DNA from: an uncultured Dehalococcoidia bacterium
GTDB lineage: Bacteria > Chloroflexota > Dehalococcoidia > Lucifugimonadales > UBA1123
NCBI GenBank assembly: GCA_964537915.1
Contig: CAZIDM010000007.1
Span: forward strand, 8,879-72,878
Direction of reading: 5' to 3'
Length of the DNA: 64,000 nt
The first letter of the stretch is position 1. Every line of letters starts with the position of its first letter. Position numbers and translations under genes: made by a program. Below are positions 4,525 through 64,000 of this stretch, piece after piece. Below the pieces are notes generated by a model. It had not been told where the DNA came from. It ran no database searches and saw only the letters and a list, made by a program, of their open reading frames with translations.

Positions 4525-4842
4525 CTACCGCTTACAGTATTACCTAGTTGAACCTGTAGAGTCATCATGGCTCCTACGGAGAGGGTAACCAGCGTTCTGA
4601 AAAGTTCCCCCAACACTCCCTATGATCGTCAACTGTTGACACCATATATATCATTATCGCCAGAATACCCCTCAACTTACTAAATCATATAACGACTCAA
4701 GAAAGACTCACCGATTCGGGCATGCGTTCGCAGTCCATGTCTTCTGGTGAAAACACCGACTATACACATATGGATTAAGGCACATTTACTAATACATTTG
4801 TTTGCTTCCAAGAATAAGGCGTAGGCCTTTAGGCGGCTGGCG

Positions 4843-4871
4843 TTGACAGCCCAAACAATGCAGCATATAAT
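4843..4871 (+). promoter_or_regulatory. consensus sigma70-type promoter (TTGACA-17 nt-TATAAT) for the TIR-like gene
   Basis: TTGACA at 4843-4848 and TATAAT at 4866-4871 with an exact 17-nt spacer. A GGAGG SD follows before the ATG at 4897. Confidence 0.6.
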
Positions 4872-4896
4872 AAACTGCAAAGTTTTGGAGGTCGTC

Positions 4897-5952
4897 ATGT
4901 CTCTCCCTATTCGCACTACCATCGCTGACATCGACGCAGTCTGCGGCTACTTGGTTACCAAACCCACTGGTGCCACACCCGCTGAAATGAAGGCCGTCGT
5001 GGACAACCGCAGTCTCGATGGGCGAAAACTCACTGCAATGAAGTATTGGGGGCTCATCGAGGACAATGCCGACAAGGTGAAGATTACGGACAGTGGGCGT
5101 CTAGCCGTGAGGGATTCCGGCTCATCTCGAAGCCACGTGCTGCGTGAAGTAATTCGCCAAGTGCACCCATACTTCGCGGTGATCGAGCGGGTCGCGCACC
5201 GAAACGAGGAGACACTTGCAGCAACTGACGTGGCTGCCCATTGGTATGAGCACTTCAGAAGTGATGTTTCCGAGTCTGAGAAGACACTTAACGACCAGGC
5301 AGTATGCTTCTTTCAGATTGCACAAGGGGCTGACCTTGGAATTCTCACCCTTGGGCGCAGAGGCATGCCAACTCGTTTTGACTTTGATGGTGAGGCAACA
5401 CTTAGATTCATCCACGGCTCTGCCACAGACTTGGAGAGTGTTGAGGCGACGGACGATTCGACAGAACGCGGCTATCCAATTGTTGAAGATGACGTCGATT
5501 CCAGAGATCCCGAATTGGAAGATCCCTCAGATAATGGCAACCGTGTCTTCATCACACACGGAAGGAATCGCAATATCTTGGGCCAAGTGAAGGAGCTAGT
5601 GGAATACGGCAAGTATGAACCTGTCATAGCGATGGAACACGAAACAGCCGCCAGACCCGTTCCTCAGAAGGTCATGGACGACATGCGGGCGTGTAAGGCC
5701 GCTGTAATTCATGTGAGCGCAGAGAGGATCCTTCACGATGACGACGGCAATGAAGTCCCACAGATTAATGGAAATGTCCTTATAGAGATTGGTGCAGCCA
5801 TGGCTCTCTACGGCGATAAGTTTGTCTTGCTTGTCGAGGAGGGATTAAACCTTCCATCCAACTTACAAGGGCTTTACGAGTGTCGCTACAAAGGGGACGA
5901 ACTCAACATGTCAGCAGTCATGAAGTTGCTGAAAGCCTTCAACGAGTTTTAG
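4897..5952 (+). CDS. TIR-like nucleotide-binding protein (PF10137/COG4271-type C-terminal domain) with an uncharacterised N-terminal domain
   Basis: C-terminus: NRVFITHGRNRNILGQVKELVE...AAVIHVSAE...NVLIEIGAAMALYGDKFVLLVEEGLNLPSNLQGLY. This matches the 'predicted nucleotide-binding protein containing TIR-like domain' pattern. Start chosen at MSLPIRT, which follows a GGAGG. Confidence 0.7.
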   Translation: MSLPIRTTIADIDAVCGYLVTKPTGATPAEMKAVVDNRSLDGRKLTAMKYWGLIEDNADKVKITDSGRLAVRDSGSSRSHVLREVIRQVHPYFAVIERVAHRNEETLAATDVAAHWYEHFRSDVSESEKTLNDQAVCFFQIAQGADLGILTLGRRGMPTRFDFDGEATLRFIHGSATDLESVEATDDSTERGYPIVEDDVDSRDPELEDPSDNGNRVFITHGRNRNILGQVKELVEYGKYEPVIAMEHETAARPVPQKVMDDMRACKAAVIHVSAERILHDDDGNEVPQINGNVLIEIGAAMALYGDKFVLLVEEGLNLPSNLQGLYECRYKGDELNMSAVMKLLKAFNEF

Positions 5953-56892: not shown

Positions 56893-57723
56893 ATGCCAGA
56901 GCCTCGAGTGATCTACCTGCCCAGGCCGGGAAGCCCGATTGACGTCGACAGGGAGTTCTACGGACGTCTGGGCGAGGAGACGGAGTCCCGCAGCCTGGTC
57001 GACGAGTTCGTGGTGCCGATCCGCTCCGGCAAGGCGTGGCCGGTGCTGGCGGGCCAGATTTGCCGCATCGTCGTGGTGGAGGGCGCGCAGGTGGCCGACT
57101 TCAACGCGTGGAACCTCAACAACCCGCGCGAGCGATTCTGGGCGGCGCGCACCAAGCAGCTCCACCGGGCGCACGTGACGAAGTTCGACCGGCTGTGGTC
57201 AAGCCTCCCGTACCTGCGACCGATGCTCACCATCACCGGCGACTCGGTGGACTATGGGCTGGACGAGGACGGCGCCGGGTGTCACGACCTGCTGGGCACT
57301 CGCTGCGACCCGTACGTCCACAAGCTGCTGAACGACGAGGACTTCGACTACTGCTGCCACTCGAACCTGGTGCGGGCGGTCACTCCGTTCCACCTCAACG
57401 AGAGCGACGTCCACGACGTGCTCAACATCTTCCAGGTGACCGGACTCACGCAGGACGACCGCTACTTCGTGAAGCCCTCACCGGCGAGGCGGGGGGACTA
57501 CTTCGAGTTCTTCGCCGAGATAGACCTTCTGTGCGCGATCTCCACGTGTCCGCACGGAGACCTGTCAGTGCAGGTGTGGGGAGAGGAGGACGCCATCGAC
57601 CCAATCGAGACCTGCAACCCGCTGGGGGTCGAGGTCTACCAGCCCGGTCCGGAACTGCTGGAGGGGTGGGAGTCGCCCCCGACGATCGACTACCGGGGGA
57701 TTCATGGGCTTGATCGTGGGTGA
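56893..57723 (+). CDS. DUF1989 / urea-carboxylase-associated family protein
   Basis: VPIRSGKAWPVLAGQICRIVVVEGAQVADFNAWN...RERFWAARTKQ...LWSSLPYLRPMLTITGDS...CHDLLGTRCDPY. Confidence 0.75.
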   Translation: MPEPRVIYLPRPGSPIDVDREFYGRLGEETESRSLVDEFVVPIRSGKAWPVLAGQICRIVVVEGAQVADFNAWNLNNPRERFWAARTKQLHRAHVTKFDRLWSSLPYLRPMLTITGDSVDYGLDEDGAGCHDLLGTRCDPYVHKLLNDEDFDYCCHSNLVRAVTPFHLNESDVHDVLNIFQVTGLTQDDRYFVKPSPARRGDYFEFFAEIDLLCAISTCPHGDLSVQVWGEEDAIDPIETCNPLGVEVYQPGPELLEGWESPPTIDYRGIHGLDRG

Positions 57724-57752
57724 GGCTTCGGATGGATTGTGAGCAAGCCTTT

Positions 57753-57790
57753 TCACCCTCACCCAACCCTCTCCCTGAGGGAGAGGGGCT
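57753..57790. repeat. REP-like unit ('PSPxGEG' type)
   Basis: caccctcacccaaccctctccctgagggagagggg. Confidence 0.75.
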
Positions 57791-57829
57791 AATGTATAGG
57801 ACTTCTCAAGGAACTAGCCGGAGGGCGAG

Positions 57830-58660
57830 ATGATCGTGGTGACCGGAGCGGCGGGACGGCTGGGGCGCATGGTCGTGCAGATGATTGTGGACGGGGGCCG
57901 GGATGTGCTGGCTACGGACCAGGTGGACGCCGACGACCTCCCGGCGGAGTTCGTTCGTTGCGACCTGGTCGACGCTGACACGGCGGGGGAGATCCTCAAG
58001 GGTGCGGAGGCCGTCATCCACATGGGGGCGATCCCCGGCCCGATGCGTGATCCCCCAAGGGTGATCTTCGAGAACAACGTGGAGAGTACGTTCAACGTCA
58101 TGATGTCGGCGGCGGAGCTTGGACTGCGACGCGTGGTGTTCTCGTCCAGCGCGTTCGGCATGGGGTGGGCGCACGAGGGGGACGCATTCGTGCCGCTGTA
58201 CCTGCCGCTCGACGAGGAGCATCCCATGATGCCGTTCGAGCCATACGGCCTGTCCAAGCAGGTCGGCGAGGACATCGGCAGGATGATCGCGCGCAACTCG
58301 GACACCACCGTCGTCAGCCTGCGGTTCACGAACGTGGCGATGCCGGAGGTGATTGCGGAGTTCCCGTGGCCGGCTCCCACGCCGGAGGAGCCGCTGACGC
58401 TGGTGATGTGGGCGTACGCTGAGGCGACGTCCGTGGCCGAGGCCCACGTGCTCGCGCTGGACGCCGAGATCGAAGAGTACGAGGCGTTCATGCTCGCGCA
58501 GCCATCCAGCCGCTTCGAGGAGCCGACGGTCGACCTCGTCAGGAACAACTTCGGAGACCGCGTCGAGATACGCGAGGGCCTGGACGGCACAGCCAGCGTC
58601 ATCAGCACCCAGAAGGCACAGCGAATGCTGGGCTGGACGCCGCACCACGACTGGCGGTGA
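57830..58660 (+). CDS. NAD-dependent epimerase/dehydratase-family protein
   Basis: MIVVTGAAGRLGRMVV is the Rossmann GxxGxxG motif. Y..SK appears as PYGLSKQ. Confidence 0.85.
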   Translation: MIVVTGAAGRLGRMVVQMIVDGGRDVLATDQVDADDLPAEFVRCDLVDADTAGEILKGAEAVIHMGAIPGPMRDPPRVIFENNVESTFNVMMSAAELGLRRVVFSSSAFGMGWAHEGDAFVPLYLPLDEEHPMMPFEPYGLSKQVGEDIGRMIARNSDTTVVSLRFTNVAMPEVIAEFPWPAPTPEEPLTLVMWAYAEATSVAEAHVLALDAEIEEYEAFMLAQPSSRFEEPTVDLVRNNFGDRVEIREGLDGTASVISTQKAQRMLGWTPHHDWR

Positions 58661-58667
58661 GGGCGTG

Positions 58668-58753
58668 CCTCCCACCCTCTTCTTTGCTTTCGCTGCTCCT
58701 ATCGCCTAGTATCGACGCCATCGTGACGCGGGTACTGCCGGGAGGAGGAGACT
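58668..58753 (+). promoter_or_regulatory. conserved PTE leader, copy 1
   Basis: A pyrimidine-rich 5' part (cctcccaccctcttctttgc), then catcgtgacgcgggtactgccgggaggaggag, shared with the leaders at 61899 and 63332. Confidence 0.5.
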
Positions 58754-59854
58754 GTGGCTGCTAACGCACCGAACATGGCCGGCAAGGTGATGACTGTCCG
58801 GGGGCCGATCGAGCCGGACGCGCTTGGCCCCACCCTGATGCACGAGCACCTGTTCATCATCTTCTACAGGGGCGTGGAGATGGACGACAACACCCCGGCC
58901 ACCGACTGGTGCCTGTGGGAGCAGGAGCTCACCATGGACAAGCTGGACCTGGTGCGTGCCCGCAAGCCACTACGTGACAACTGGCTGCTCATCGACGAGA
59001 GGGCGGCCATAGAAGAGGCCATGGAGTTCAGGTATCACGGCGGCGGCGCAATCGTCGACGTCACCAGCATCGGCATCGGGAGGGACCCGCTGGCACTGGC
59101 TCGCGTGTCCCACGCCACAGGCCTCAACGTCGTAATGGGCGCGGGCTGGTACCAGAAGCTCTACCACCCCGTCGACATGGACGAGAAGACCGTCGAGGAG
59201 ATGACCGACGAGATCATCCGGGACATCACGGCTGGCGTCGCTGGCACCGGCATCCGTTCAGGCATCATCGGAGAGGTCGGCATCGAGGGCAACCCGATCA
59301 CCGACAACGAGGTCAAGAGCATCCGCGCGTCCGGCAGGGCCAGTCGCGCCACCGGCGCCGCAATCTCGTTCCACCGTGGCGGAGTTGGCCGGGAGAAGCT
59401 CGCGGTGATCGGTATGCTCGGCGAGGAGGGCGCCGACATGTCGCGTGTCATCTTCGGTCACAGCGACCCCATCGCCGGCGACCTCGACCTGATGCTGGAG
59501 CTGCTGGGCCACGGGGTCTACATCCAGTTCGATCTGCTGGGCCGGCTGGGCGCGCCACTGCGGCACGTGCCGGACGGCGACGACTTCGGAACATTCTTCA
59601 CCAGCGCCGGAACGGCTGCGGTGGCCGAGGCGATCCCCAATCTCATAGAAGCCGGATACGCCGACCGCATCCTGCTGTCCCAGGACGTGTGCGGCAAGGT
59701 ACAGCTCAAACGATACGGCGGGACTGGATTCTCCTTCATCATGGAAAAGTTCCTGCCCGAACTGCGCTCCCGAGGCGTCTCAGAAGACCACATCCAGATG
59801 ATGATGGTGGACAACCCACAGCGGATCCTGACGTTCGTAGAGCCGCGGGGGTAG
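58754..59854 (+). CDS. phosphotriesterase-family (PTE/PLL-like amidohydrolase) protein, paralogue 1
   Basis: VMTVRGPIEPDALGPTLMHEHLF carries the HxH metal ligands. IIGEVGIE...FHRGG...GHSD...LLSQD is the TIM-barrel metal-ligand series. Confidence 0.85.
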   Translation: MAANAPNMAGKVMTVRGPIEPDALGPTLMHEHLFIIFYRGVEMDDNTPATDWCLWEQELTMDKLDLVRARKPLRDNWLLIDERAAIEEAMEFRYHGGGAIVDVTSIGIGRDPLALARVSHATGLNVVMGAGWYQKLYHPVDMDEKTVEEMTDEIIRDITAGVAGTGIRSGIIGEVGIEGNPITDNEVKSIRASGRASRATGAAISFHRGGVGREKLAVIGMLGEEGADMSRVIFGHSDPIAGDLDLMLELLGHGVYIQFDLLGRLGAPLRHVPDGDDFGTFFTSAGTAAVAEAIPNLIEAGYADRILLSQDVCGKVQLKRYGGTGFSFIMEKFLPELRSRGVSEDHIQMMMVDNPQRILTFVEPRG

Positions 59855-60125
59855 ACTTTCTAACGATCACATCACGCCGACTTACGCTCGTCCAGAACCC
59901 TAAGAGGAACGACGGGAAGCAGTTCACGGCGTCCCTCCACTAGGGTCCATTACTTATCTATCTCACCGACTATCGACTATTTCTTTCACACTCACTGATT
60001 TCCTTAAACCAACTCCTCTTCGAAGAGGAGGGGTCATTTCGACGTCTATATCCTGCTACGCACTTCGCCAGTTGTTGGCGGCTCTGCTGTGCTAGGTGTC
60101 GCGTTGGGGTAAGTTGTCGACACGT

Positions 60126-60197
60126 ATTGTATGTATATTTACCATTGTATTTGATGTTTTTATTGTATGAATATTCCATATTGTATTTCCTCTTTTT
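60126..60197. repeat. four 18-bp-phased iteron-like repeats with an ATTGTAT core
   Basis: ATTGTAT occurs at 60126, 60144, 60162 and 60180, at exact 18-bp spacing. The units are otherwise degenerate and AT-rich. Confidence 0.8.
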
Positions 60198-60930
60198 AAT
60201 CCATTAGTTTTCTTCATGTTCGGTCCTTTCTTTCATCTTTAGACTAAGCTCAGATGACCAGTTATACTCAAGGCTCGTGTATCATGAGCCTATAGCGACG
60301 TATTGGGCAAAAATTCAGTTGAAAGCTGATTAAGTATAAAGTCTGTTCATTCATTAGTGCTATCCCATATTCAATACTGCATACATATATTATACCACAT
60401 GCTGTCAACTATTTACCGATTTATTGAAAGACATTAATTGATTAACTATCTATGTCTGGATTCATCTCTCTGTAGAACCACAGCTCTTTCAGACCAATTA
60501 CGCGAGGCTACTCACAAGAAGCTGCTACTACGGATGAAGCAGTGCACACAATTCACGGTTCTTAGGAAACAATTGAGCCAACAGAATGCCGCACGCAAAA
60601 GACTGACACATCGAAGTCGTATATTCGCATGGCCTCACCATTGATAGCATGGCATGCACTTCAACACGGACAGTGACCTAAGGACAATTGACCAGTTCCG
60701 CCCTCAAGACGATAGATTGAAACCGTAAGGTCAGGTCGTTCAGGCACACGTTAAACTAGGCCAGCCAAATGGCCAGTGAGTCGTATGGCAGTCGCTGGCT
60801 GCGACTCCTTCCAGCAGGTGGTACCACGGTATTAGGGTAAGATCGACGATCACCCAGGTTCCTGGATTCTCTCTCTGTTAATTTGGCGATACACTGAGCT
60901 AGCATATGCTGAATTATTCATAGGTCAGAC

Positions 60931-61566
60931 ATGCGAGGGAGTTCGTTCTTGAACTATCTGACAACATACCATCCTCTCGTAGAAACGCGTCGTGGCAGGG
61001 CCGCCATCGACACGTTCGGTTTCCCGCCGTATGTGGATGACTCATGTCGCAGGGAACCAGACTTCGAGTCTGAGTTTCCCTCAATCACTGCCTTGTGCAG
61101 AAGAAGCAAATTCGCACCGCGACTGTGGGAGTCAGACTACATTGCTTACATGACGATCAAAGGCAAGTATCCTGACCTGGATGAACCTCACTGGCGCTTG
61201 ACAGCCATCCTTAGAGTAGTGAATAGGTTCGAGACGCACCGAGAGGCAGCGAACTGGTATCAGGAGCAGGGATTGCCACTACCCAGCAATTGTATAGTCG
61301 ACGGCAACTTGCCTTTTGAACTGGAGATGACGGGCAATCGTGATAGCCACCAATTCGTGAGGTTCTGGGACGCAATCTACCGAAAACGAGTCCGTGACTA
61401 CTCAATGTTCTTGGTAACTGAACCTGAATTTCTTGAAATCACATACCCACCTATTGTGACAGAAACCATGCTGCAAGATATATTCGGTAGGGTTCCGGCA
61501 ACGCGCACTCCACCTCGCATCACTGACGAACAACTAATGGCCCTGATCGAAGCAGTCGCCATTTGA
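60931..61566 (+). CDS. hypothetical 211-aa protein in the low-G+C island
   Basis: It is the only convincing ORF in 59855-61970. No SD is obvious and no family is recognised. Confidence 0.5.
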   Translation: MRGSSFLNYLTTYHPLVETRRGRAAIDTFGFPPYVDDSCRREPDFESEFPSITALCRRSKFAPRLWESDYIAYMTIKGKYPDLDEPHWRLTAILRVVNRFETHREAANWYQEQGLPLPSNCIVDGNLPFELEMTGNRDSHQFVRFWDAIYRKRVRDYSMFLVTEPEFLEITYPPIVTETMLQDIFGRVPATRTPPRITDEQLMALIEAVAI

Positions 61567-61898
61567 GGAGTCATATTTCTGTGAAACGGTTGAGAATCCT
61601 GCCTGCCCCAGTCTTATCAAATTAGGTTACCCAGAGATCACAAGTCTTCAGTTCAACGCTGCGCTCCAGTTCGATGTGACAGATATTCACACACTGAAGT
61701 TATTCCAGCGGTACCACCTAGCTGCTCGTAGGACATGAGGAGCTGCCCGATGCTAAGTTACGAGCATAACCCCTTAGATGAACATGTTGCCCGTCTCGAC
61801 GACCTGCCTGAATACCCTGCCGAATACGCCGATTGCGTGGAGGATGGAAGCCATCTGCAAATGCTGAGTGATAACGTTGATCGGGGTCCCGTTCCCAA

Positions 61899-61985
61899 CT
61901 AGCCGTCTCCCCCCTTTGCCCTCCCCGCCCCTATCCCCTACCATCGGCTTCATCGTGACGTGGGTTCTACGTGGAGGAGACATCC
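61899..61985 (+). promoter_or_regulatory. conserved PTE leader, copy 2
   Basis: ctagccgtctcccccctttgccctccccgcccctatcccctaccatcggcttcatcgtgacgtgggttctacgtggaggag. Confidence 0.5.
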
Positions 61986-63086
61986 GTGACTGCTGACCTG
62001 CCGAACTCGGCCGGACAGGTGATGACCGTCAGAGGCCCCATCGAACCGGAGCGGGTCGGCGTTACGCTGATGCATGAGCACCTGTTCCTCACTACGAACA
62101 AGACGTACGCGCCGGTCGGCGACACTCCGGCTACGGACTGGCGGCTGTGGGAGCAGGACGTGACCATGGACAGGCTCGACCTCGTCCGTGCTCGCAAGCC
62201 GATCAGGGACAACTGGTTCGTGGCGGATGAGCAGACGGCGGTCGACGAGGCCCTGGAGTTCAGGTATCTCGGCGGCAGCACCTTCGTCGAGGTCACCAGC
62301 ATCGGCCTCAGGCGCGACCCGCTGGGCATGGCCCGCGTGTCCTACGCCACCGGCCTCAACGTGGTCATGGGCACCGGGTGGTACATGAAGCTCTACCACC
62401 CTGACAACATGGACGAGCTGACCGTCGAGGGCATGACCGATGAGATCGTCCGGGACATCACCGTCGGCGTGGGGGACACCGGCATCCGCTCCGGCATCAT
62501 AGGCGAGGTCGGCATCGAGGGCGCTCCGATCACCGAGAACGAGGTCAAGAGCATCCGCGCCGCCGGACGGGCCAGCCGCGCTACGGGAGCTCCCATCACG
62601 TTCCACAGGGGAGGCCAGGGTTGGGAGAAGCTGGCGGTGATCGACATGCTCCGGGAGGAGGGCGCGGACACCTCCCGCGTGGTCTTCGGTCACAGCGACT
62701 CCCTTGCTACGGACATGGACCTCATGCTGGAGATGCTGGGACACGGTGTCTACATCCAGTTCGACCTTCTCGGGCGAGTCGCGGTGCCCCTACGGTACGC
62801 GCCGGACGGCGACGACCTGAGATCGTTCATGACCAGCGCGGGAGCGGCGGCGGTGGCCGACGCGATTCCCAGGCTGATAGACGCCGGCTACATCGACCGG
62901 CTCCTGCTGTCGCAGGACGCCTGCACCAAGATGCAGATGAAGCCGTACGGCGGAACAGGCTTCTCGTTCATCAGCGAGAGGTTCCTGCCTGAGCTGCGCT
63001 CCCGGGGAATCTCAGAGGATCACATCCAGACTATGATGGTCGAGAACCCGAAGCGGGTTTTGACGTTCGTGGAGCCTCGGGACTAA
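61986..63086 (+). CDS. phosphotriesterase-family protein, paralogue 2
   Basis: Collinear with paralogue 1 (VMTVRGPIEPERVGVTLMHEHLF...). Start taken at GTG 61986, after a GGAGGAG. Confidence 0.85.
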   Translation: MTADLPNSAGQVMTVRGPIEPERVGVTLMHEHLFLTTNKTYAPVGDTPATDWRLWEQDVTMDRLDLVRARKPIRDNWFVADEQTAVDEALEFRYLGGSTFVEVTSIGLRRDPLGMARVSYATGLNVVMGTGWYMKLYHPDNMDELTVEGMTDEIVRDITVGVGDTGIRSGIIGEVGIEGAPITENEVKSIRAAGRASRATGAPITFHRGGQGWEKLAVIDMLREEGADTSRVVFGHSDSLATDMDLMLEMLGHGVYIQFDLLGRVAVPLRYAPDGDDLRSFMTSAGAAAVADAIPRLIDAGYIDRLLLSQDACTKMQMKPYGGTGFSFISERFLPELRSRGISEDHIQTMMVENPKRVLTFVEPRD

Positions 63087-63105
63087 CTCCCCGGTTCCCG
63101 AGTTC

Positions 63106-63335
63106 CTGGGTCTCTTAGTTTTCGAGTGCCATCTGTGTGGTCCGTTCGTGGTGAGCCTTGTGTAGTCCGTTCGTGGTGAACCTTGTGTGGCCCGTTCGTG
63201 GTGAGCCTTGTGTGGCCCGTTCGTGGTGAGCCTTGTGTGGCCCGTTCGTGGTGAGCCTGTCGAACCATGTACAGGCGGCCCTTCGACAAGCTCAGGGCGA
63301 ACGGATGTAGGCGAGACGAAATGAGGAGACCCTAG
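63106..63335. repeat. copy 3 (inverted orientation) of the long-hairpin element, carrying a 5 x 25-bp internal tandem amplification (63134-63258)
   Basis: ccgttcgtggtga recurs at 63142, 63167, 63192, 63217 and 63242. The flanks match the reverse complement of 24203-24359. Confidence 0.85.
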
Positions 63336-63415
63336 TCCCCCTCCTTTGCCTTCCCCGCCCCTATCCCATACCATCGCCACCATCGTGACGTGGGTCCTAC
63401 GTGGAGGAGGAGACC
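63332..63415 (+). promoter_or_regulatory. conserved PTE leader, copy 3
   Basis: ctagtccccctcctttgccttccccgcccctatcccataccatcgccaccatcgtgacgtgggtcctacgtggaggaggag. Confidence 0.5.
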
Positions 63416-64000
63416 ATGACTGCTGACGTACCGAACATGGCTGGGAAGGTGATCACCGTCCGGGGGCCTATCGAGCCGGACCGGCTTGGGAACACCATCA
63501 TGCACGAGCACCTGTTCATCACTCTGTACAGGGCGTTCGAGCCGGATGACAACACTCCGGCGACCGAGTGGTGTCTATGGGAGCAGGAGCTCACCATGGA
63601 CAAGCTCGACCTGGCGCGCAACCGCAAGCCGATCCGCGACAACTGGCTGCTGGTCGACGTGCAGACGGCGATCGATGAGGCCATGCAGTTCCGACATCAC
63701 GGCGGCGGCACCCTCGTCGACGTCACCAGCATCGGCATCCGGCGAGACCCGCTGGCGCTGGCTCGCGTGTCGCACGCCACCGGCCTCAACGTCGTCATGG
63801 GCGCGGGCTGGTACCAGAAGCTCTACCACCCGTCCAACATGGACGAGCGGACCGTCGAGGACATGACCGATGAGATCGTCCGCGACGTCACCGTCGGCGT
63901 CGGCGACACCGGCATCCGCTCCGGCATCATCGGGGAGGTCGGCATTGAGGGCGCTCCGATCACCGAGAACGAGGTCAAGAGCATACGTGCATCCGGTCGG
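63416..64000 (+). CDS. phosphotriesterase-family protein, paralogue 3 (partial, runs off the window)
   Basis: Translated by hand from ATG 63416: MTADVPNMAGKVITVRGPIEPDRLGNTIMHEHLFITLY...IIGEVGIEGAPITENEVKSIRASGR. It is open to the end of the window. Confidence 0.85.
   Translation, partial: MTADVPNMAGKVITVRGPIEPDRLGNTIMHEHLFITLYRAFEPDDNTPATEWCLWEQELTMDKLDLARNRKPIRDNWLLVDVQTAIDEAMQFRHHGGGTLVDVTSIGIRRDPLALARVSHATGLNVVMGAGWYQKLYHPSNMDERTVEDMTDEIVRDVTVGVGDTGIRSGIIGEVGIEGAPITENEVKSIRASGR

Follow-up and report, generated by a model that had tools for sequence, protein, structure and literature searches.

The 64,000-nt stretch of DNA analysed here (the window) comprises positions 8879-72878 of contig C7 in the metagenome-assembled genome (MAG) of an uncultured Dehalococcoidia bacterium, an assembly of 2.68 Mb in 46 contigs that is ~80% complete. 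Three tandem phosphotriesterase (PTE) paralogues (Pfam PF02126), termed PTE1, PTE2 and PTE3, stand at its right end (Table 1). PTE1 and PTE2 are separated by low-G+C DNA, as the original prediction had stated; its G+C content is 0.32-0.52, against 0.62-0.68 in the flanks. This segment consists of an AT-rich block, an intact gene of 205 or 211 codons (the 205-aa gene) and the stump of a second gene, which in relatives encodes a protein of 570 amino acids (the 570-aa gene). G-numbers below are labels of the relatives' genomes and L-numbers of their loci; G000 is the MAG of the window.

The repeated PTE unit begins ~79 nt 5′ of each start codon (58675, 61907 and 63337). As the unit includes this leader, the foreign segment extends from 59855 to ~61905. 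The left edge of the insertion first proposed (59855-61970) thus stands, but its right end does not, since the PTE2 leader begins at ~61905. PTE2 probably starts at GTG 61986 and not at 61971, the start of the longest open reading frame (ORF); the proteins of the relatives begin MTANVPN... The lowest 500-nt G+C value of the whole assembly, 0.364, is found at 60123-60622 (mean 0.604, standard deviation 0.038). Other spots of lowest G+C in the genome are ordinary coding islets, for example with DUF262-type genes. The block is unusual in combining the highest A+T content of the genome with a lack of ORFs: the absence of a plausible ORF from the first ~1 kb was confirmed, all ORFs in 59856-60930 having 69 amino acids or fewer, and those of the block matched no family in Pfam or NCBIfam.

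The right half of the segment has an orthologous locus in close relatives. L063 and L064 display the order PTE_a, a 375-amino-acid NmeDI_C-type nuclease, the 205-aa gene, the 570-aa gene, PTE_b and PTE_c. L313 and L312 display a PTE gene, ~80 nt, the 205-aa gene, an intact gene of 570/577 amino acids and a further PTE gene, and their 205-aa protein is at least 90% identical to that of the window. In G023 the islet has been invaded by IS630, IS66 and an IS1380-like element. Window positions 60938-61876 are collinear with L063 5990-6886 at 76.5% identity. Relative to L063, the 205-aa gene has a synonymous divergence (dS) of 0.72, which compares with 0.87 in the flanking epimerase gene and 0.62 between PTE1 and PTE_a. 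The pairs with the lowest nonsynonymous divergence (dN) are PTE1 and PTE_a of L063 (0.081) and PTE2 and PTE_b of L063 (0.119). Because the position is collinear and orthologous and dS is similar to that of the flanking genes, the islet was inherited vertically at this locus from a common ancestor and decayed afterwards, and its acquisition was not recent. The comparison of loci shows that the ancestor shared with the closest relatives carried PTE_a, a spacer of ~80 nt, the 205-aa gene, the 570-aa gene and PTE_b. In some lineages the 205-aa gene is preceded, in addition, by the gene of a solitary NmeDI_C-type restriction nuclease.

The second gene is represented in the window by its first ~42 codons. 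Residues 6-47 of a 55-amino-acid ORF match residues 1-42 of the L063 protein P0121 (L063:6760-8472) with 64% identity (BLASTP, E 2e-14), and tblastn and blastn comparisons with G023 and L063 agree with this assignment. The gene is intact in the relatives, with 570-577 codons. Since the stump ends after 42 codons and passes through ~27 nt of filler into the PTE2 leader, ~1.6 kb has been deleted, consisting of the remainder of the gene and its 3′ flank, with the deletion ending at the PTE2 leader. The PTE2 leader of the window is closer to the PTE3/PTE_c leader than to that of PTE_b, which hints that recombination between PTE units produced the deletion.

The left half is different in that it has no counterpart. 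In L313, L312 and L069 the PTE stop codon and the 205-aa gene are only 69-81 nt apart (69 nt in L069) and the block is absent. The window keeps the gene-proximal ~90 nt of this ancestral type of spacer; for the remaining ~980 nt, blastn gave no match in the 60 relatives, nor in another 400 class genomes (~460 in total). A tblastx search against its own genome and all of the loci retrieved was likewise negative, and blastn at word size 9 found no second copy in the genome. Direct repeats of 8 nt, ACGATCAC, stand at both edges, 983 nt apart. The octamer has five copies in the window (both strands counted), and the pair at the edges could stem from duplication of a target site or from a microhomology through which illegitimate recombination took place.

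These observations make it likely that the segment represents a decayed accessory islet, probably related to defence, in one spacer of a tandem PTE array. The original prediction had suggested horizontally acquired DNA and proposed a comparison with related genomes, in which the segment proved not to be conserved in all relatives and the block to be present in none of ~460. The foreign composition and the small number of relatives with these sequences (the gene in 2 of 60, the block in 0 of ~460) agree with the suggestion; a recent single insertion of the whole does not hold, the right half being old. Horizontal acquisition is thus right for the cargo as a class, and the islet itself is old at the locus. 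Coordinates of the features are collected in Table 1.

Table 1. Features of the PTE1-PTE2 segment and its surroundings, in window coordinates unless a locus of a relative is named
Feature	Position	Strand	Remarks
PTE1, left flank	58754..59854	+	PF02126, E 1.5e-68; positional orthologue of PTE_a of relatives
Left copy of 8-nt direct repeat ACGATCAC	59863..59870	+	Left edge of unique block
Unique AT-rich block, ~975 nt, no ORF	59871..60845	.	Inserted where close relatives have an ~80-nt PTE-to-gene spacer
Perfect 18-nt palindrome CTCCTCTTCGAAGAGGAG	60013..60030	.	Hairpin z = -3.2, picked post hoc
36-nt tandem repeat, 2.1 copies, 78% match	60125..60198	+	Tandem Repeats Finder (TRF); four ATTGTAT cores
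Right copy of 8-nt direct repeat ACGATCAC	60846..60853	+	Right edge of unique block
Conserved 5′ region of 205-aa gene	60860..60948	+	Aligns with L063, L069, L312, L313; GAGGGAG at 60935-60941
Intact gene of conserved unnamed family	60931..61566	+	211 amino acids from ATG 60931
Intergenic DNA kept in relatives, between 205-aa and 570-aa genes	61567..61749	+	Collinear with L063
Stump of 570-aa gene, first ~42 codons	61750..61877	+	Inside 55-amino-acid ORF 61735-61902
Filler of ~27 nt at deletion joint	61878..61904	.	Joint aligned with L063
Conserved ~80-nt PTE2 leader, start of next PTE unit	61905..61985	+	Repeat families D2/D3; leader alignment
PTE2, right flank	61971..63086	+	PF02126; positional orthologue of PTE_b of relatives
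Five tandem copies of 25-nt unit TGTGTGGCCCGTTCGTGGTGAGCCT	63134-63258		PTE2-PTE3 spacer
PTE3	63401 to window end (64000+)		PF02126
XRE/HigA-like antitoxin stretches	L063:4572-4735; L005:6434-6600; L013:2448-2563; L014:~4775-4930		In loci of relatives

The extreme composition of the block, and its presence in this assembly only, might also arise if foreign reads had been joined into the contig, and PTE repeats close by can mislead assemblers. A contig assembled from a single sequencing run in the Logan collection (SRR22586461_357897, 2765 nt), found as a member of the same 90% protein cluster, is 100% identical to window 59782-62546; it spans the end of PTE1, the block, the 205-aa gene and the stump, runs into PTE2 and crosses both junctions. 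Both junctions also fall within one ~80-nt spacer of an otherwise collinear locus, unlike chimeric joins. An assembly artefact is therefore extremely unlikely, and the chimeric join that the original prediction named as a refutation is contradicted as far as this can be done without reads.

The block was also searched for RNA and protein-coding functions. About 1 kb without ORFs beside accessory genes is a setting typical of retron-like or toxin-antitoxin RNAs, and local hairpins do exist, so that a structured non-coding RNA, or a small protein, outside the present libraries was considered. No Rfam family matched at E ≤ 1 with permissive filters over 58500-63500, and a tRNA/tmRNA scan gave no match. 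Folding energies of 150-nt windows on both strands of the block show no excess (z -2.0 to +2.4), and that of its 275-nt 5′ part is ordinary (z = -0.6). There are no homologues, hence no conservation in which covariation could be tested, and the short ORFs match no family. A non-coding RNA or small protein is thus very unlikely, and the regulatory or RNA locus that had been proposed finds no support in the Rfam and structure scans. Six-frame translations with stops masked contain no remnant of a Pfam family. A period-3 signal was not found either, in a test that is weak at such composition, the real 205-aa gene itself reaching only z = 1.6.

A third possibility is a relic of a small replicon or mobile element that has lost its Rep or transposase gene; an ATTGTAT array would represent its iterons, and the surrounding DNA would be the AT-rich region of unwinding. 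ATTGTAT occurs at 60126, 60144, 60162 and 60180, in exact 18-nt phase, within the most AT-rich DNA of the genome, and in this the block resembles iteron-type plasmid origins. Such origins have an array of 17-22-bp iterons beside a rep gene, together with DnaA boxes and AT-rich DNA that unwinds. The block has the AT-rich DNA and the four repeats, but conservation is limited to cores of 7 of the 18 nt, the 18-nt period does not correspond to whole helical turns, and neither a DnaA box nor a remnant of a rep or transposase gene was found in any frame. Insertion sequences and miniature inverted-repeat transposable elements (MITEs) are recognised by terminal inverted repeats, a target-site duplication and several copies per genome. 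The ACGATCAC pair resembles a target-site duplication, and spacers of relatives do acquire insertion sequences, as seen in G023; the block has no terminal inverted repeats and is single-copy in the genome. Comparison by blastn with 72,556 plasmids and 50,697 phages detected no similarity. The remnant of a small mobile replicon, as originally proposed, is therefore quite improbable.

The palindrome, the phased ATTGTAT array and the local hairpins described in the original prediction are all present in the sequence and might be thought to have a function in cis, in regulation or in the binding of proteins. In that case the operators would be the cores and the palindrome, and the AT-rich DNA would act as promoter of the 205-aa gene, which is now cut off from read-through from PTE1. 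The phasing of the cores is far beyond chance, as none of the shuffled sequences gave even one phased pair; the four phased cores can equally well be described as a 36-nt tandem duplication. Metagenome and viral contigs scanned for ATTGTAT-N11-ATTGTAT-N11-ATTGTAT yielded only AT-rich tandem repeats, which blastn showed to be unrelated. The palindrome and the twin hairpins at 60755-60807 (folding z = -3.0, chosen by eye) are locally stable. Perfect 18-nt palindromes number 35 in the genome, or ~1 per 77 kb, and one per 1 kb is only mildly unusual. Sigma-70-like hexamers stand at 60117-60145 and 60240-60268, although promoter-like sites are as frequent as in shuffled sequences, and the gene downstream is still under selection. 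The array is nevertheless ~750 nt 5′ of the start codon, the ~90 nt directly 5′ of the gene, which are kept in relatives without the block, probably hold the native signals, and no part of the block has a conserved counterpart in another genome. A cis-regulatory role is unlikely on this evidence.

Another perfect 18-nt palindrome, GGCGGTTCGCGAACCGCC, is present at window 40248 (C7:49126) and in 13 other places of the genome, 14 in all. Its recurrence suggests a dispersed element resembling repetitive extragenic palindromes (REP) or MITEs.

The decayed-islet interpretation is strengthened by the behaviour of PTE arrays elsewhere. Tandem PTE paralogues were found in nine genomes of the genus; the arrays compared were those of G001, G002, G005, G006, G007, G009, G023 and G029 and the loci L063, L313 and L069. 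Gaps between paralogues range from 33 to 8461 bp, and every gap of at least ~500 bp (504-8461 bp) has a G+C content of 0.51-0.58, against ~0.64 in the PTE genes. Kilobase-sized gaps carry cargo that is unrelated among genomes. There is an NmeDI_C/REase_II-like nuclease in gaps of G002, G007 and G023, a 483-amino-acid protein of no assigned function in G006, an AHJR-like nuclease with a 166-amino-acid protein in G006 and G001, a pair of 149 and 175 amino acids in G001 and G005, and pieces of PTE pseudogenes with a PemK toxin gene in G001 and L313. The second PTE spacer of G001 (L014:7180-8178) has as its sole cargo a 332-amino-acid SDH-type ClpP-like serine protease (PF01972, E 2.4e-19). Every gap ends in the conserved ~80-nt PTE leader. 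Conserved flanks, varying cargo and deviant composition, by which variable hot spots and islets are recognised, are all found here.

The spacer between PTE2 and PTE3, which had been described as a repeat and leader region of ~330 bp, does contain a repeat (five 25-nt units), although its length is 314 nt; sequence related to the 25-nt unit is present in a spacer of G029. The whole array (56893-64000, compared with L064:3400-12600) is inverted relative to the epimerase/DUF1989 flank: in the window the epimerase is followed by PTE genes of equal orientation, whereas the PTE genes of L064 converge on it. An amidase that borders the array in L063 and L064 was not found in the ~80%-complete MAG. 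In several relatives the ~150 nt directly after the PTE stop codon are conserved and read like the N-terminus of an XRE/HigA-like antitoxin (MSGRHSFQELTEDFSQDRRRRIEAIKEELLAEM...); this seems to be a truncated remnant carried along with the nuclease cargo. Contig C7 is rich in defence-type islets, and type I restriction-modification genes, hsdM-like followed by a low-G+C hsdS-like gene, are present at G000:C7:78740-81895, ~5 kb past the PTE array, with a peptide ABC transporter in between.

The 205-aa gene was taken for an orphan of 211 codons. This was not borne out: a word-indexed search found 444 homologues, and a hidden Markov model search of 1.84 billion representatives found 535 representative clusters at 50% identity. 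The start is probably TTG 60949, behind a Shine-Dalgarno-like GAGGGAG, which gives 205 amino acids; all relatives start there (MNYL...). Nearly all family members are single-domain proteins of 200-260 amino acids. They are found in at least nine phyla, among them Chloroflexota, Acidobacteriota, Verrucomicrobiota, Bacteroidota (including the cultured Spirosoma and Hymenobacter) and Ignavibacteriota, as well as in Sorangium, Gemmatimonadales and others. The distribution is patchy among the related genomes (2 of 60), and in 25 of 30 loci the G+C content of the gene is below that of its surroundings. Since dN/dS is 0.10-0.13 relative to four relatives, the intact gene of the window is under purifying selection and functional.

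No family in Pfam, NCBIfam, PHROGs or PADLOC matches the protein. A comparison of 40 members with Pfam gave no ASCH, EVE, YTH or other family of the PUA clan at E ≤ 1, and a profile search of the Protein Data Bank (PDB) found nothing relevant. Likeness to the clan comes from structure prediction. The AlphaFold2 model of the 211-amino-acid form, built from a 40-sequence alignment, is of high confidence (pLDDT, the predicted local distance difference test, 94.6; predicted template-modelling score, pTM, 0.89). The seven best PDB matches found with Foldseek all belong to the PUA-like clan: the Zymomonas protein ZmASCH (5y6b/5guq), MJECL36 (2p5d), the N-terminal domain of McrB (6p0f/6n0s), the EVE protein PH1033 and YTH. 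Their probabilities are 0.72-1.0, with E-values from 1.4e-3 and template-modelling (TM) scores of 0.35-0.41 when normalised by the query and 0.41-0.55 by the target. In the BFVD structure database, ASCH and EVE proteins lead the matches. The 205-aa protein is thus predicted to be a PUA-like (ASCH/EVE/YTH clan) beta-barrel, a likeness at the level of the clan.

The family alignment displays 26 invariant columns, many of them polar, with the motif S-C-R-R-E-P-D...W-Y...W-D..Y. Invariant polar residues are R40, E42, D44, S51, Y73, T75, R99, N120, N126, D147 and Y150, and they suggest a protein that is more enzyme-like than a mere reader. To our knowledge, the S-C-R-R-E-P-D... motif is not that of the characterised ASCH enzymes. 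Neighbours of the family elsewhere include McrBC with a large N6-methyltransferase and a PIN gene, AbiJ/Abi_C with IS21, and IS21 with a reverse transcriptase. On account of the PUA-like fold, the invariant polar residues and these neighbours, the protein may bind or process a modified nucleotide or nucleic acid as a stand-alone unit.

The 570-aa family, which also has no Pfam or PADLOC model, comprises at least 1879 clusters with more than 50% identity, all annotated as hypothetical. Its neighbours elsewhere are type ISP and Eco57I restriction-modification genes, PIN toxins and IS630. Its structural model (pLDDT 78.9, pTM 0.48) gives only a weak match, to part of Avs3, on which no assignment is based.

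Comparison with known systems places the locus among accessory islets. As in defence or accessory islets of hot spots, conserved flanks hold different low-G+C cargo within one genus; among the cargo are solitary restriction nucleases, toxin genes and insertion sequences, and deletions and insertions bring about its decay. The PTE array differs in that a single enzyme gene, in tandem paralogues with a conserved leader of ~80 nt each, forms the flanks, that no integrase or recognisable attachment site was found there, and that the window copy keeps no recognised defence gene. The 375-amino-acid protein of relatives resembles R.NmeDI (PMC2095814): it is annotated as NmeDI_C (PF27126, a precomputed annotation) and matches the PADLOC model REase_II (E 9e-15). 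This nuclease occupies exactly the position of the AT-rich block; neither it nor other proteins of the relatives' islands left a tblastn trace in the block. The lineage of the window may never have had the nuclease, because the closest relatives L313, L312 and L069 also lack it.

EVE and ASCH proteins that stand alone next to restriction-modification or toxin-antitoxin modules probably bind modified bases (PMC7641849), and in modification-dependent nucleases PUA domains serve as sensors (PMC6765204). The 205-aa protein is similar in being a small, stand-alone, predicted beta-barrel, with ASCH, EVE, McrB N-terminal and YTH structures as best matches, and in standing often beside McrBC, methyltransferases, Abi genes and insertion sequences. 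It differs in the absence of a sequence-profile match to ASCH, EVE or another Pfam family among 40 members, in TM scores of only 0.38-0.55, and in a size ~60 residues above that of ASCH domains.

Several points weigh against a decayed, defence-related islet with a filler block. Neither the 205-aa nor the 570-aa family has a PADLOC match, and a defence role of either is putative. No neighbour recurs across 42 loci of the 205-aa family, and one member lies among plain housekeeping genes. The block is untraceable to any source, and its description as filler is drawn from negative results, among them the period-3 test with its little power. Without terminal inverted repeats or a second copy it fits no known transposable element, and the ACGATCAC pair at its edges could be a coincidence, for which a rough estimate gives a chance of ~1%. 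The phased ATTGTAT array and the palindrome are beyond chance, and proteins could bind there. As for the Logan contig, it may have been assembled from the very reads that gave the MAG. A bolder reading joins two claims: that the 205/211-aa gene founds an undescribed family of stand-alone enzymes or sensors of modified nucleotides or nucleic acids with a single-gene immune or salvage role, and that the ~980-bp block, as a non-coding insertion of a novel type, changed how this gene is expressed after the loss of the 570-aa gene. Taken together, these are rather doubtful.

The decayed-islet interpretation would involve the following steps. The ~980-bp block would have arrived from a low-G+C source by a single insertion or illegitimate-recombination event, and it would now be non-coding filler, or at most promoter-like AT-rich DNA for the 205-aa gene. 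Recombination among PTE units and leaders that are ~80% identical may drive the gain, loss and truncation of cargo.

The locus itself is nothing unusual: an accessory islet at a variable site, now worn, with a block that deviates in composition more than any other DNA of the genome. Both the PUA-like 205-aa family and the 570-aa family, on the other hand, are widespread, strongly conserved and unnamed in any library; with their defence-type neighbourhoods they are candidates for functional screens. Across this genus of soil Dehalococcoidia, the PTE paralogue array repeatedly gathers foreign cargo, and paralogue repeats may in this way serve as a site for landing and reshuffling.

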